DNA from: Vulcanimicrobiota bacterium
Lineage (GTDB): Bacteria; Vulcanimicrobiota; Xenobia; Xenobiales; JADMJV01
Direction of reading: 5' to 3'
Assembly (NCBI GenBank): GCA_050250895.1
Contig: JBFWNU010000005.1
Coordinates: forward strand, 384,001 to 448,000
DNA length: 64,000 bases
Notes under the pieces: generated by a model
Told to the model about the DNA's origin: nothing
Seen by the model: the letters and a program-made list of their open reading frames with translations, nothing else
The model's database searches: none
In this document: positions 16,338 to 21,439 of the stretch, one piece after another
Layout of the letters: every line of letters begins with the position of its first letter
Numbering within the stretch: position 1 is the first letter of the stretch
Position numbers and translations under genes: made by a program

Positions 16338-17549
16338 GTGGTCTTGGTGGGCTGTTCGGGGGCGGGCAAATCGACCTTCGCCGCCCGCCATTTTCTGCCC
16401 ACCCAGATCGTCAGTTCGGACACCTGCCGAGCCCTGGTGGGCGACGACCCCAACGATCAGACGGTCACCCCCCAGGCCTTTGCTCTGGTCGACTTTCTCA
16501 TCCACCAGCGCCTCTCGCTCAAGCGCCTGACCGTGGTCGACGCCACCAGCGTCAAGCCCGAAGATCGCAAGCGGCTGCGCCTGCTGGCCAAAGAGCACGA
16601 CCTTCCGGCGGTGGCGATCGTGCTCGATGTCGACCGTGAGACGCTGCGGCGCCGTCGCCTCGAGCGTAGCGACCGCAGCGTTCCCGAGGAGGTGCTGCAG
16701 ACCCAATTTCAGACCTTGCGCGACAGCCTTTCAGGGTTGGCCAGGGAGCGGTTTAAATACACTCACCACCTCCGTCACGGATTTGATCAGGTCGAGATCC
16801 AGCGCGTGCCGCTGCGCTGCGATCGCCGTTACGACCCGGGACCGTTCGACATTATCGGCGATCTTCATGGCTGCTATCCGGAGCTGCTCGAGTTGTTGGG
16901 CAAGCTGGGTTATCAGGGCACCACCCCACCACCGGGGCGCCGGGCCTTGTTTCTGGGGGACCTGACTGACCGCGGGCCAGACTCGCCGGCCTGCCTGCGG
17001 CTGGTGATGGACATGGTCGGCCGCGGCCAGGCACTTTGTGTGCCCGGCAATCACGACGACAAGCTGGTGCGCTGGCTCAAGGGGGCCCAGCTCAAAGTCG
17101 GCCGCGGTCTCGAGACCACCGTGGCTCAACTCGAAGGCCTCGAAGATGACTTTCGCCAACAGCTACTAAGCTTCTATGAAGACCTGCCCACCCATTATGT
17201 GCTCGACGGGGGCAACCTGGTGGTGGCCCACGGAGGCATGCCCGAGCATCTCCAGGGCCGGAGCAGCGGTCGAGTGCGCTCGTTCGCCCTCTATGGGGAC
17301 ACCACGGGCAAGACCGATGCCCAGGGCTTTCCCATCCGCCGCGATTGGGCCCGCGACTACCGCGGGCAGGCGCTGGTGGTCTATGGACACACGCCCATCG
17401 AAGAGGCCCAGTTCATCAACAACACCATCAATATCGATACGGGCGCCGTTTTCGGAGGCCGCCTCACTTGCCTGCGCTACCCTGAACGAGAACTGGTGTC
17501 GGTGCCCGCCCAGCAAACCTACTATGAGCATCCTTTGGCGGAGCGGTAA
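16338..17549 (+). CDS. polynucleotide kinase-phosphatase (Pnkp-like, kinase + metallophosphoesterase, no ligase domain)
   Basis: P-loop GCSGAGKST, SSD, DAT; phosphoesterase motifs GDLHG, GDLTDRG, GNHD, YGHTP, IDTG; true start may be slightly upstream (CTG ~16302). Confidence 0.9.
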   Translation: MVLVGCSGAGKSTFAARHFLPTQIVSSDTCRALVGDDPNDQTVTPQAFALVDFLIHQRLSLKRLTVVDATSVKPEDRKRLRLLAKEHDLPAVAIVLDVDRETLRRRRLERSDRSVPEEVLQTQFQTLRDSLSGLARERFKYTHHLRHGFDQVEIQRVPLRCDRRYDPGPFDIIGDLHGCYPELLELLGKLGYQGTTPPPGRRALFLGDLTDRGPDSPACLRLVMDMVGRGQALCVPGNHDDKLVRWLKGAQLKVGRGLETTVAQLEGLEDDFRQQLLSFYEDLPTHYVLDGGNLVVAHGGMPEHLQGRSSGRVRSFALYGDTTGKTDAQGFPIRRDWARDYRGQALVVYGHTPIEEAQFINNTINIDTGAVFGGRLTCLRYPERELVSVPAQQTYYEHPLAER

Positions 17550-17736: not shown

Positions 17737-18096
17737 ATGACCCAATTTGCAACACTGGCCGGCACGAACGCCGCGGTCGATCTTCGGACGCCGCGCTCGA
17801 CTTACGATGCGTTCTGCCGTTCGATTCTCCAGGGCAAGACGGAGCAGCTCTGGAGCGTCGTGCACCCGGAACTTCGGTTCCTGTTGCAGCGCCAGTACTA
17901 TCAGATGGGGGAATTCCGTTTCCTTAGCTCTCTTCGCGACTTGGTGGCTGGTGGGGGACTACGTCTATCCCTGGGCAACCCCGAACCGGTAACCTCCGGG
18001 ACGGTCCGTTGCCCCCTGCTCCGCTCCGGCCACCAAGTCGGTCAAGCCAGATTCTCGTTTAGCGAGAACTCCTGGCTCCTCTTCTCTTTAAACTAG
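17737..18096 (+). CDS. small hypothetical protein (NTF2/DUF4878-like possible)
   Basis: GGAGG RBS before ATG 17737; stop overlaps the start of the NYN gene. Confidence 0.6.
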   Translation: MTQFATLAGTNAAVDLRTPRSTYDAFCRSILQGKTEQLWSVVHPELRFLLQRQYYQMGEFRFLSSLRDLVAGGGLRLSLGNPEPVTSGTVRCPLLRSGHQVGQARFSFSENSWLLFSLN

Positions 18097-18881
18097 TGGC
18101 CGCAGTAATTACCCCCCGCAACGACGAGGCCAACCTGGCCCTCTTTATCGACTTCGACAACCTCGCCATCGGCGTGCGCCAGTCGGGCTATGACAAATTC
18201 GATATCCATCTGTTGATGAAACGCCTCCTCGAGAAGGGGCGTATTTTATTTCGTCGAGCCTACTGCGACTGGTCGAATTTTCCCGAGTACAAGCGCCCTT
18301 TCCATGAGGCAGCCATCGAGATGTTCGACATCCCTCAGCGCAGCATCGGCGGCAAGAACTCGGCCGACATCCGGATGGTGGTGGACGCTCTCGATCTGTG
18401 CTACACCCGGCCCCACATCGACCTTTTCGTCATCGCCTCCGGCGATTCCGACTTCTCGCCGCTGGTCTCGAAGCTGCGCGAGAACAACAAGCGCGTCATC
18501 GGCGTGGGGGTCAAGAACTCGACTTCAGACCTGCTGGTCGACAACTGCGACGAGTTCGTCTTTTACGAAGATCTCATCCGCGGTCGCCGCGTGACCCACC
18601 ACCTCGACAACCTGCCCAAGAAAAAGCAAGAACTCTTCTCGTTACTTGAAGACGCCGTGCAGGCGCTGCAGCGCCAGAACAAAGAGATCCTGTGGAGTTC
18701 GATGGTCAAGCAGATGATGAAACGCTTGCGGCCGACCTTCGACATGGACTACTTCGGCTATCGCACCTTCTCGAAGCTGCTCGAAGACGCCGAGAAGCAC
18801 AAGGTCGTCAACATCGAGCGCGACGAGCGGAGCGGGTCTTACATCATCCTCGACCTGGGAGAATACGCCCCGGGGGCTTGA
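18096..18881 (+). CDS. NYN domain (LabA/DUF88) protein with C-terminal OST-HTH/LOTUS
   Basis: FIDFDN, GKNSADIRMVVD, SGDSDFSPL, CDEF, FGYRTFSKLL. Confidence 0.92.
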   Translation: MAAVITPRNDEANLALFIDFDNLAIGVRQSGYDKFDIHLLMKRLLEKGRILFRRAYCDWSNFPEYKRPFHEAAIEMFDIPQRSIGGKNSADIRMVVDALDLCYTRPHIDLFVIASGDSDFSPLVSKLRENNKRVIGVGVKNSTSDLLVDNCDEFVFYEDLIRGRRVTHHLDNLPKKKQELFSLLEDAVQALQRQNKEILWSSMVKQMMKRLRPTFDMDYFGYRTFSKLLEDAEKHKVVNIERDERSGSYIILDLGEYAPGA

Positions 18882-18995: not shown

Positions 18996-19898
18996 CTAGT
19001 CGGGGCACTTCCAGCCAGACTCGGTTCGGAGAGAGCCTTTTTTCTTGGTCGGCACGTGATGAAGGTCGCCGGGTGAACCCTCTTCGGGCGGGGCCCCGAA
19101 TTGAACCACATTGATCTGGTCTAGGCCAATTTGCTGGACCAGGTTTGGGTTAATGATAAAGACATCCCAATGGCGAGTCACGCCCGGGGTATTCGGCGGT
19201 GCCCAGAAATTGTTCAGTCGATCGACGAACACAGGCTTGGATTGATGGGTTGTGACGGCTACGGTGTCTCGCTTCCACCACTTCTCGGCCGGGCAAAAGG
19301 GGCATCGCGCGCCATCAGCCGCCCCGGGCAGGCGCCAATCATAGCGGGTCGTCCACGGTTGTTCTAGGTGGCGGCGGTGATACACGCACGCAATCTCGAC
19401 CGGGTTGGGGGTCCTCGGCTGAAGATACAAGCGCCACCGAAGCGGCTCGTCGAGCACCGTGTCTTTCGCTTGATGTCTCTTGAGGTTGCGACCGAGAACA
19501 GGCTTGCAGAGCAGGAACGGGGTCTTATTTGCTCGGATGAGATGCCAGGCGGCGGCCGCCATCCGGTCGGGCCAATCGCTCGAGAGTCCGGCGCTGCCGA
19601 ACATCGACTTGAATCCCCAGGCAAAGTCGGTTGGTGGGGTCGATTCCGGCTCGGACACCGGAGAAAATTTGGCAGGGGTCCCTACTTTCCGAAACTGGCT
19701 CAAGCGAAGGTCAAGTCGCGGGGATTTCTGTTGTAGGGGGCGGATGAGTTCCAGCCAGAGTGGGTTCCAGTAGTCGGGAACCGCCCAAAGCGTAGCCCCG
19801 ACCGCTCGGAGAAACTGCAGAATGAAGTCCAGGTCCTGACACAGGTCATTTTCATCAGGACTCCCCGCGAAGAAGGCGGGATCCAGTATCGCATTCAC
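18996..19898 (-). CDS. hypothetical protein, C-terminal Ntox17-like putative RNase domain; candidate defence effector
   Basis: GTGA overlap with the ATPase stop; C-terminal pattern LP..G..PF.P...W / FVDRLNNFW / HWDV / QIG...INV / GDLHH. Confidence 0.7.
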   Translation of the reverse strand: MNAILDPAFFAGSPDENDLCQDLDFILQFLRAVGATLWAVPDYWNPLWLELIRPLQQKSPRLDLRLSQFRKVGTPAKFSPVSEPESTPPTDFAWGFKSMFGSAGLSSDWPDRMAAAAWHLIRANKTPFLLCKPVLGRNLKRHQAKDTVLDEPLRWRLYLQPRTPNPVEIACVYHRRHLEQPWTTRYDWRLPGAADGARCPFCPAEKWWKRDTVAVTTHQSKPVFVDRLNNFWAPPNTPGVTRHWDVFIINPNLVQQIGLDQINVVQFGAPPEEGSPGDLHHVPTKKKGSLRTESGWKCPD

Positions 19899-21439
19899 AG
19901 ATTGGGTTCGTCCGACGGGTCATGAACAATTCTCAACGAAGAATAGTCGGCCGCTGGTTCCTTCGCAAGACTGGCGTAGTAGATGGCTGAGTCTTCTTCA
20001 CTTCCCTCGTCCATAAAGTCGTCCGGCCAGCACTCCAGGCCGCCAGTTGAGGTTAGACGCGACTCCCGTATGGTCGAGTGACCTTGGCAGTCCTGTTCGA
20101 CTTCGTAAATGACGACATTGTTGATCAACCAGGACTCGATTTCACTCTGGGCCGGAGCTCGCGCGACTAGACCGCGCAATCGGCGCACCAGATGGTCGCT
20201 GTGTGTCTCGACGAGAATTCGCCGATTGCTCCGGGCCAGACCTACTAACCAATTCGCCAAACGGCTCTGCACCTTTGGATGCAGGTGGGCTTCCGGTTCT
20301 TCCAAGGCAATGTGCGACACCTGGTTGCAGGCACTTATGTAATCAGGGAGTGGCAGATTCCCGTGAGCCTCAAACCTGAGCGGATCTGCCAGCAGACCTA
20401 GTTCAACCAACGGCAACAGGTAGGTCAACCCCCGTCCGACATGGGGCAGGCTGGCGTTTCCGAATAATAGACGAAAACCCACCTCCTGTACCTCTTCAAC
20501 GCTCAGATCGACATTGATCGAGAGTTCCTTTAGAACGTCGTTGACAGCCTCTACCAACGAACGCTCGTGAACCAGTTCCGGTGGCTCGGCAGTCGGAAGG
20601 GTATAGTGAACCAGATCGTTCTGGCGTCGATGAAGAAGCTGGGCCGCGAGTTCCCCACTCACGCCAATCTCCTGGGGAGCTACGTTGGATGTCTTGTACA
20701 GGCTCGGAGGGGAAGTTCGAATTGAGCCCAGGTATTGAAAACCCGCCAATAAGCGCTTTAGCGCCTCCAGAGGTTGGCTGAAAAGGAGGTGGAACGCATT
20801 GAAATAGGCTCGTTCGCGATCCCTAGGACCAACCTGGCTACGGTCTATCAATAAATACGGGAGAAAATGGTCGAGTTCGACCTCGAGCTTGGCTGTTTCG
20901 ATGTCGCGATACCAACAGCGCCAGCCAGTTTGGATAGACTCAAAGCGGAAGAGCTCCTCTTTCTCGAGCCCCGAAGACAAGCCGATCTCGGAAATCGACG
21001 TAGTGCCGCGAACCTCTTGGGTGTGGAGTCGCAACTTTGACGTCAAGGGGCTGGGGATGTTGTCGAGCCATTCCAATTTGGAGTGCTTCTTGAGATTCGC
21101 GATATCCGGCTGTCGCAACTCCCCTAGCGCCCGGTCCACATCGATCTCGGCCTCCCAACGAAGAGTCATGCTGGGACCATCCACTACATCCCCTGCTTTG
21201 GGCCACCCGGTTGTGAGTTCCCTTAAGTTGAAGGCGCTCAGATAGTTGCCGTCGAGCTGAATTTGAACTTCGGGACGAGGCTCGCTGAGTGTTTGTTTGA
21301 GCAAAAGGAGACTTTGAATAAGGCTGCTCTTGCCGCTATTGTTTCGTCCTAGTAGAACCGTCAATGGAGCCAGACGCATATGAGCGGGCGCAGCGAAGCT
21401 CTTGAACCTTTCGACCTCTAGAGACAAAATCTGACTCAT
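19895..21439 (-). CDS. ABC-type AAA_21/AAA_15 ATPase with DUF3696-like C-terminus
   Basis: Walker A GRNNSGKS, signature-like VGRG, Walker B LEEPEAHLHP, H-loop ETHSDH, C-terminal WPDDFMD; visibly more AT-rich than flanks. Confidence 0.9.
   Translation of the reverse strand: MSQILSLEVERFKSFAAPAHMRLAPLTVLLGRNNSGKSSLIQSLLLLKQTLSEPRPEVQIQLDGNYLSAFNLRELTTGWPKAGDVVDGPSMTLRWEAEIDVDRALGELRQPDIANLKKHSKLEWLDNIPSPLTSKLRLHTQEVRGTTSISEIGLSSGLEKEELFRFESIQTGWRCWYRDIETAKLEVELDHFLPYLLIDRSQVGPRDRERAYFNAFHLLFSQPLEALKRLLAGFQYLGSIRTSPPSLYKTSNVAPQEIGVSGELAAQLLHRRQNDLVHYTLPTAEPPELVHERSLVEAVNDVLKELSINVDLSVEEVQEVGFRLLFGNASLPHVGRGLTYLLPLVELGLLADPLRFEAHGNLPLPDYISACNQVSHIALEEPEAHLHPKVQSRLANWLVGLARSNRRILVETHSDHLVRRLRGLVARAPAQSEIESWLINNVVIYEVEQDCQGHSTIRESRLTSTGGLECWPDDFMDEGSEEDSAIYYASLAKEPAADYSSLRIVHDPSDEPNL

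Follow-up and report, generated by a model that had tools for sequence, protein, structure and literature searches.

The subject of this analysis is a pair of overlapping genes in a 64,000-nucleotide stretch of a Vulcanimicrobiota genome (contig JBFWNU010000005.1), hereafter the window, in which an ATP-binding cassette (ABC) ATPase is followed by a 300-residue partner that we call the effector. We consider it fairly probable that the pair is a horizontally acquired, ATPase-gated toxin module of the kind represented by the Menshen and HEC-03 systems, that it does without the Menshen sensor NsnA, and that it serves in defence against phages or other mobile elements. The initial annotation had read the pair as a defence system of a type without a name, with an RNase or tRNase as its effector.

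The case begins with the ATPase. Against Pfam it matches AAA_15 (1.5e-19) and AAA_21 (6e-17), and among the PADLOC models its best match is NsnB (2.1e-56, over profile positions 3-336 of 345), followed by PDC-M55A (8.5e-34) and then by HEC-03B (3.3e-31, a partial match in three stretches); the AriA, GajA and PtuA models match it weakly. A profile built from 13 orthologues aligned with an NsnB that lies beside a genuine NsnC in another genome (hhalign 99.5%, 340 columns) and with the HEC-03 ATPase of the window's own genome (hhalign 99.8%), and the WPxxF tail is included in both alignments. The motifs quoted in the initial annotation (Walker A, Walker B, ETHSDH and WPxxF.D) are all found, and most are invariant in 13 homologues. 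In the tail motif, WPDDFMDE at residues 471-478, this applies to W471, P472, F475, M476, D477 and E478. The label of a DUF3696-type ATPase can be kept in part: the tail aligns with those of NsnB and of the HEC-03 ATPase, but the Pfam DUF3696 model itself reaches 17.4 bits, which is under its 22-bit cut-off. Judged by its sequence, the protein is an NsnB/HEC-03-type ABC ATPase with intact nucleotide-binding motifs and a DUF3696-like tail.

Menshen consists of NsnA (a ParB-DUF262 sensor), NsnB (an ABC ATPase with a DUF3696 tail) and NsnC (Li et al., NAR 2025, PMC12065111). NsnC is described there as an inactive PIN domain joined to one of 15 effector domains, and in the model of Li et al. the NsnB tails clamp the PIN-like domain. 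The pair in the window resembles this arrangement in several ways. Its ATPase is NsnB-like and has a DUF3696-like tail, and the effector gene lies directly downstream and overlaps it. The effector has about 300 residues; its PIN-like N-terminal domain, in which the acidic catalytic set is incomplete, evolves faster than the C-terminal toxin module, and the pair is often found near genes of the restriction-modification (R-M) type. Since an inactive PIN domain followed by a C-terminal toxin is the published NsnC architecture, we regard the pair as a sensor-less relative of Menshen. The earlier view that the pair is of an unnamed type thus has to be given up, as its ATPase is of NsnB/HEC-03 type and the plan of its effector has been published. 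What does stand is that the effector itself is unnamed, in that PADLOC, Pfam and NCBIfam hold no model naming it.

The differences from Menshen concern the ATPase, which has about 140 extra residues in a region that we call Insert-1, and the sensor. Neither NsnA nor DUF262 was found in the 102 flanking open reading frames (ORFs) of the 14 loci that we collected from genomes (E<=1e-5), and the PADLOC NsnA model gives a single weak match (2e-10) in the window's own genome, on another contig. The survey of Li et al. was seeded on NsnA, so sensor-less pairs of the NsnB-NsnC type lay outside its scope. In the main text and legends of that paper the only Ntox domains named are Ntox18 and Ntox21, and not Ntox17 (PMC12065111; the supplements were outside this search). 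The PADLOC models of NsnC gave no match for P0001 at E<=0.1, nor for P0004, P0012 and P0101 at E<=0.001.

Sensor-less pairs were also seen around more distant ATPases. At 43 metagenome loci with such ATPases, the ATPase gene is nearly always overlapped by a downstream ORF of 270-360 residues; these ORFs belong to at least six families, and some of the partners match PADLOC NsnC models (9.2e-10 and 5.5e-4); none of the 27 upstream ORFs that were scanned has a DUF262 domain. This survey of partners leads us to view the sensor-less NsnB-NsnC-type pairs as a broad effector-swapping group, of which the family in the window would be the 'HWD-Ntox17' member. A second family of about 290 residues (L065:2245-3105, L069:5888-6763, L102:1198-2073 and L103:854-1723) lies downstream of distant NsnB-like ATPases with 26-31% identity and ends in an Ntox17 domain that is shorter and likewise has HWD in the place of EWD; the partner at L103 passes the Pfam Ntox17 cut-off with 28.5 bits. 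Two further arrangements were noted upstream. At L063, L074, L084 and L091 there is an abutting gene of about 515-535 residues with a GHKL-type HATPase_c_3 domain, which may represent a three-gene variant with a different first component, and at L085, L090 and L093 a QueC-like gene lies upstream of the distant ATPase pair.

The initial annotation had taken ABC ATPase and effector for an operon with a stop/start overlap, and the wider set of loci supports a conserved and translationally coupled pair. The ATPase lies directly upstream of the partner in 13 of the 14 genome loci, the 14th being cut by a contig end, and the hosts of these loci include Myxococcota, Beta- and Gammaproteobacteria, Magnetococcales, Cyanobacteriota and Limisphaerales. 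The partner looks decayed in two of them (frameshifted in L014, truncated in L015). Among 37 metagenome loci with a close ATPase the partner is downstream in 33, a contig end follows in three and the ATPase is an orphan in one (L057), where a 240-residue 'alternative partner' was considered and rejected as an apparently spurious ORF. Among 28 complete pairs, 21 share the 4-base overlap; the other starts were estimated from hidden Markov model envelopes. At two loci (L072:105-1357 and L073:4977-6229) an intact effector gene follows only the last ~111 codons of the ATPase, and in L073 an ORF with an IS605-type helix-turn-helix domain lies just upstream of the truncated ATPase. Either the toxin gene survives there without a full ATPase or the tail alone suffices.

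Such tight coupling of the genes, together with the position of some pairs beside integrases, a prophage repressor and an insertion sequence element, would also suit a toxin-antitoxin-like addiction cassette that stabilises islands or prophages, with the ATPase as a proteinaceous antitoxin and no phage sensing at all. Pfam labels AAA_21 as a 'putative AbiEii toxin, Type IV TA system' domain, and the decayed copies point in the same direction, as the partner is frameshifted or split in L014, L037, L052, L056 and L062 and the ATPase is truncated in L073. We nevertheless regard an addiction cassette as unlikely. The closest characterised relatives of the pair, Menshen and HEC-03, have been validated as anti-phage systems (PMC12065111; bioRxiv 10.1101/2024.01.29.577857), and a 514-residue ATPase with a hypervariable insert far exceeds what an antitoxin would need. 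The intact effectors of L072 and L073, which retain only the last 111 residues of the ATPase, are also hard to reconcile with it unless the tail alone neutralises the toxin.

The second line of evidence comes from the C-terminal ~115 residues of the effector, which profile comparison identifies as a divergent Ntox17 domain. The profile of this region matched 91 fetched Ntox17 domains at 95.1% by hhalign (E 3.2e-8, 73 columns). The controls stayed far below this: the N-terminal half gave 0.2%, the alignment read in reverse 0.3%, and none of 20 column shuffles more than 1.9%. A global alignment (89.9%, 91 columns) places H281 on the conserved terminal His after an insertion of about nine residues. 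Within the family the Pfam Ntox17 model is matched by 6 of 74 members at E<=1 and by 4 of 73 at E<=0.03, always co-linearly, and with 25.7 bits (E 1.4e-5) the member P0101 is above the Pfam cut-off; the window's own effector has no match to it at E<=1 (gathering threshold 25 bits). The blocks that are shared in co-linear order with Ntox17 (Pfam PF15524, from contact-dependent inhibition (CDI), Rhs and MafB toxins) are LP..G, P, D..GN.W, xWDV, N and G..xH. The motif order that the initial annotation had given for Ntox17 agrees with the 90% consensus of the 91 real domains, and its proposal of a homologue with H in place of E is supported by both the profile match and the alignment columns. In the 91 Ntox17 domains E, W and D of the ExD motif are present in all and the tail His in 87, and the one systematic difference is that the Glu (91/91) is His243 throughout the focal family (74/74). 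Two other polar residues of the domain, R185 and D226, are listed as invariant along with H243, D245, N263 and H281.

The setting of the domain differs from that in the known Ntox17 toxins. Where the Rhs, CDI and MafB proteins have secretion or repeat regions, the focal protein is cytoplasmic and has a fusion to a PIN-like domain, and it is paired with an ATPase. No immunity-protein families were seen in the flanking ORFs (E<=1e-5 or 1e-8; Imm31 was not searched for specifically). No Ntox17 turned up in 401 genomes of the window's phylum, and of 400 genomes of a second class 2 have it.

The effector family as a whole is of modest size. Homologues form 10 clusters at 90% identity in one collection, and among 1.84 billion proteins there are 112 representatives at 50% identity (E<=1e-3), nearly all of about 300 residues, from Myxococcota, Pseudomonadota, Cyanobacteriota and Verrucomicrobiota. 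The partner motifs quoted in the initial annotation are all present and conserved in 74 aligned members, in which the invariant residues (R185, L190, W207, W232, H243, D245, N263 and H281) all fall in the C-terminal third. Mean identity is 24.6% in the N-terminal domain and 41.1% in the C-terminal domain, so the former diverges faster. A search of the PDB by sequence with the family profile gave nothing meaningful, and the ESM Atlas, searched with the homologue P0004, returned only noise (scores <=0.79; the atlas model of P0004 itself has a predicted local distance difference test (pLDDT) value of 0.36). Three proteins (P0107, P0117 and P0122) in which fragments of an Eco57I-type methylase or of the ATPase are joined to the last 45-70 residues of the effector were considered as a free-standing mobile C-terminal module, and this was rejected as they look like deletion chimeras of decayed loci.

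For the N-terminal domain we rely on structural modeling. The AlphaFold2 model of the whole effector is confident (pLDDT 94.8, predicted template modelling score 0.91), with only the loop at 81-90 being weak. In a structure search with this model 13 of the best 20 rows have titles with VapBC, VapC, PIN or PilT-N, the top one being 1w8i; with Foldseek against the PDB no row reaches E<=0.001 (1w8i is the best, E 0.25). The only conserved acidic residues of the domain are D6 and E151. The suggestion of a PIN-like N-terminus was a good one, as according to the model the domain is PIN-like.

HEC-03 is the other system with which the pair can be compared. It is formed by an ABC ATPase and a PIN protein of about 160 residues that is VapC-like, and it protects against phages with both genes being needed (Payne et al., bioRxiv 10.1101/2024.01.29.577857). 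The pair shares with it the two-gene plan of an ATPase and a PIN fold, the lack of a separate sensor, the frequent embedding in other defence systems and related ATPases. A genuine HEC-03 is present in the same genome on contig 4 (L026:4524-6355, minus strand), where a 450-residue ATPase that matches HEC-03B over its full length (3.8e-137), and DUF3696 significantly, overlaps a 161-residue PIN protein (HEC-03A, 1.5e-27). The focal ATPase is 27% identical to this one. The focal partner differs from the PIN protein of HEC-03 in its 300 residues with an added toxin domain, and it has no PADLOC HEC-03 match.

That the pair has been acquired horizontally, and is patchily spread across phyla, is apparent when comparing the window with related genomes. 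The partner was found in none of 40 relatives, the same genus included, and in a same-genus genome the synteny stops at the NYN gene next to the effector, with neither the pair nor the adjoining aldo-keto reductase gene within ~6 kilobases. In a quick tree the window's ATPase clusters with loci of Myxococcota metagenome-assembled genomes (SH-aLRT 96). The tree is used for nearest neighbours only; it retained one distant ATPase, and in five of the rows marked as carrying the focal partner that partner is cut or partial. The GC content at third codon positions (GC3) is 0.614 in the ATPase and 0.684 in the partner, compared with 0.78-0.835 in all nine neighbouring genes. The initial annotation had described an AT-rich operon, and this is right as far as the GC3 deficit and the dip over the ATPase are concerned (sliding GC 0.54-0.58, against 0.61-0.67 to the right of it); however, the low-GC stretch starts near 17250 and covers a native core gene, and the raw GC of the partner is 0.595. 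It is GC3 rather than raw GC that marks the pair as foreign. Searches of plasmid and phage collections with the partner (tblastn) gave nothing, and a pattern scan of viral contigs gave no relative.

Defence or mobility genes are neighbours of the pair in 7 of the 14 genome loci and in 6 of 29 metagenome loci that were scanned. In the genomes these include MmeI/Eco57I-type methylases with large helicase, PLD or MZB genes, an XhoI R-M system with Fic and NERD, type I R-M and an integrase. One metagenome copy (L047:1891-8515) belongs to a P2-like prophage of Peduoviridae type, where the CI repressor gene is its direct neighbour; a reference phage has its integrase and repressor genes side by side. 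At L036:2732-4695 and L038:3002-4992 a different pair, of an AAA_21 ATPase and a DUF3226 protein, lies directly upstream of the focal pair, and in L038 both ATPase pairs follow an MmeI-type methylase.

These neighbourhoods raise the question of whether the pair works not by itself but as an effector arm accessory to adjacent systems, either methylase/helicase ones (DISARM-like, MmeI-type) or restriction systems, which would then supply the sensing. An MmeI/Eco57I-type methylase and a helicase of about 1160 residues flank the pair on its two sides at L009, L014 and L038, at L006 it is just upstream of a helicase and an MZB-domain gene, and 27.9% of Menshen operons adjoin BREX or R-M genes (PMC12065111). 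Yet the copy in the window and many others have no such neighbour, the neighbours vary between loci, and systems embedded in this way, HEC-03 among them, function on their own once cloned (Payne et al., bioRxiv 10.1101/2024.01.29.577857). We judge a role as an accessory arm to be very unlikely.

How a self-contained pair might work can be sketched from the related systems. In PARIS, Septu and Gabija an oligomer of an ABC ATPase holds or controls a nuclease-type effector (PMC12065111). The working principle of PARIS (AriA-AriB), Septu (PtuA-PtuB) and Gabija (GajA) is alike, but the ATPase subfamilies, the effector folds (Toprim, HNH) and the assemblies differ, so the likeness is one in the way of working and not of membership. 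On the analogy of NsnB4-NsnC2, Septu and PARIS, dimers of the ATPase would grip the PIN-like domain of the effector with their C-terminal tails and so keep the toxin domain off. As there is no separate sensor, the ATPase itself would detect the phage cue, and ATP binding or hydrolysis might then release or activate the effector. The His/Asp/His toxin domain would then turn on an essential nucleic acid, for which RNA is the most plausible candidate and ribosomal RNA a possible one; growth would stop and the infection would be aborted. That a complex forms, what triggers the system, which chemistry the toxin domain has and that the pair protects are all inferred from this analogy.

Insert-1 would be the likeliest sensing surface of the ATPase. 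It accounts for the ~140 residues that NsnB lacks, between roughly residues 96 and 235, and part of it is the least conserved region of the protein, with a mean pairwise identity of 29% over residues ~96-190 compared with 56-68% in the core (28 sequences, approximate positions). A more specific version of our interpretation is an autonomous immune pair in which Insert-1 takes the place of NsnA as the sensor and the toxin domain is a catalytic Ntox17 variant, with His for Glu, whose fold lacks a solved relative. This version is possible, but we put it forward tentatively and with more doubt than belief.

Several observations weigh against reading the pair as a defence module of the Menshen/HEC-03 kind with a toxin of this activity. 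At the sequence level the effector shows no likeness to one NsnC (hhalign 0.0-0.1%), which is a weak criterion because NsnC is highly polymorphic, and its N-terminal domain shows none to two HEC-03 PIN proteins (hhalign 0.9%). The partner sequence itself has no match in Pfam, NCBIfam or PADLOC, nor in PHROGs. The distances of ATPase and partner are strongly correlated (Mantel r 0.888; 0 of 2000 permutations reached this value), but this is co-inheritance and not more, and any two linked genes would be expected to show it. Around the pair in the window there are ordinary genes and no defence island, and in about half of the related loci no defence neighbour can be recognised. In the literature we found no assay of Ntox17, no solved structure and no description of the effector family, and one review groups it, as 'NTox_17', with predicted pore-formers (PMC12288458).

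The last point bears on what the toxin domain does. The claim of an RNase or tRNase effector is not established by our analysis, given that Ntox17 has no assay in the literature and the fold search with the C-terminal domain was weak. Modelled alone, this domain has a pLDDT of 89.3, and Foldseek against the PDB gave weak matches only, with no row at E<=0.001 (best E 1.5); by sequence, Ntox17 is without a solved relative. The BECR RNase fold, which most NsnC effectors have and whose core is a helix with a four-stranded antiparallel sheet, is one candidate for the domain. The cytotoxic domain of colicin E3 and the CdiA-CT of Enterobacter cloacae have 16S rRNA nuclease activity. The C-terminal domain scores far too low against both for a shared fold to be claimed, and Foldseek found nothing there; they serve as a lead only. 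The pair could thus be a defence or conflict module whose effector is not an RNase and has DNA, a nucleotide or cofactor, protein or the membrane as its target, in line with the Ntox17 entry of Zhang et al. 2012, which gives only 'mostly beta; ExD, H' (PMC3482391). We consider a target other than RNA to be rather unlikely, as the domain is a soluble one of about 115 residues with mainly beta structure, the residues invariant in it (His, Asp, Asn, Arg) resemble a catalytic site more than a pore former, and it is fused to a PIN-like domain of the sort predicted to bind RNA by Li et al. (PMC12065111).

If the more specific version, with an autonomous immune pair, is true, working out the target of the effector, possibly ribosomal RNA, would provide the first biochemical activity for the Ntox17 toxin family and would show that interbacterial warfare and ATPase-gated phage defence share one toxin pool. 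The family itself shows that an ATPase-effector core can do without a dedicated sensor. The toxin domain recruited by this core is otherwise that of CDI, Rhs and MafB toxins, and in two separate ATPase-linked families its presumed active site has His strictly in place of Glu. Small and easily cloned, the pair could provide a route to how an ABC ATPase alone senses infection and to what Ntox17 domains do.

The coordinates of the features are collected in Table 1. The minus strand at the junction reads ...CTGTGAATG..., where the TGA stop of the ATPase is overlapped by the GTG start of the partner, as the initial annotation had noticed. The public gene call for the partner (P0003) has 220 residues and uses an internal GTG start at residue 81, which makes it 80 residues short and removes half of the PIN-like domain. 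The alignments with homologues begin at residue 1-3, therefore the 300-residue form is the real one.

Table 1. Features of the ATPase and effector genes in the window, with residue numbers of the respective protein
Feature	Position	Strand	Basis
ABC ATPase gene, NsnB/HEC-03 type, DUF3696-like C-terminal tail	19895..21439	minus	ORF, 514 residues
Walker A GRNNSGKS, residues 31-38	21326..21349	minus	G31, N33, G36, K37, S38 invariant in 13 homologues
Enlarged variable Insert-1, ~residues 96-235, candidate trigger-sensing surface	20735..21154	minus	unmatched against NsnB
Walker B region, residues 376-388 (LEEPEAHLHP = 379-388)	20276..20314	minus	E380, E381, E383, H385, L386, H387, P388 invariant
H-loop ETHSDH, residues 411-416	20192..20209	minus	invariant in 13 homologues
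DUF3696-like tail with WPxxF.DE, residues 452-478	20006..20086	minus	sub-threshold Pfam DUF3696; aligns with NsnB and HEC-03 tails
GTGA stop/start overlap, predicted translational coupling	19895..19898	minus	read from sequence, 4 bases
Effector (partner) gene, NsnC-like two-domain plan	18996..19898	minus	ORF, 300 residues, GTG start
N-terminal PIN-like domain, residues 1 to ~175	19374..19898	minus	confident model, low-confidence loop 81-90
C-terminal Ntox17-like toxin domain, residues 187-300	18999..19340	minus	hhalign to 91 Ntox17 domains
HWD motif H243, W244, D245, aligned with Ntox17 ExD	19164..19172	minus	H 74/74, W 73/74, D 74/74
HH pair H280, H281	19056..19061	minus	H281 74/74, H280 70/74; H281 = Ntox17 tail His

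Upstream of the ATPase, on the same strand, is the aldo-keto reductase gene. In the operon region neither Rfam families nor tRNAs were found, nor any meaningful tandem repeat, and there is therefore no sign of an RNA antitoxin or of a tRNA integration site; flanking direct repeats that would mark an insertion around the pair were not found. A search of sequencing runs for the pair gave no RNA run and one DNA run with a 0.05 share of words.

On the other side, convergent with the effector gene, lies a gene with NYN and OST-HTH domains (LabA-like) at 18096-18881 on the plus strand. It is a core gene, with 71-86% identity in five relatives (86% in the same genus), and has a raw GC of 0.579 and a GC3 of 0.82. 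Between it and a GGDEF gene, at 16338-17549 on the plus strand, is a polynucleotide kinase-phosphatase gene (bacterial Pnkp model, 1.8e-170), whose match covers positions 11-423 of 851 and is without the ligase part. A functional link of the pair to these two genes was considered and rejected, as neither recurs beside the 14 genome or 29 metagenome loci and the NYN gene is core. In the same-genus genome the GGDEF and NYN genes are adjacent without the Pnkp-like gene between them, so the Pnkp-like gene is itself accessory.

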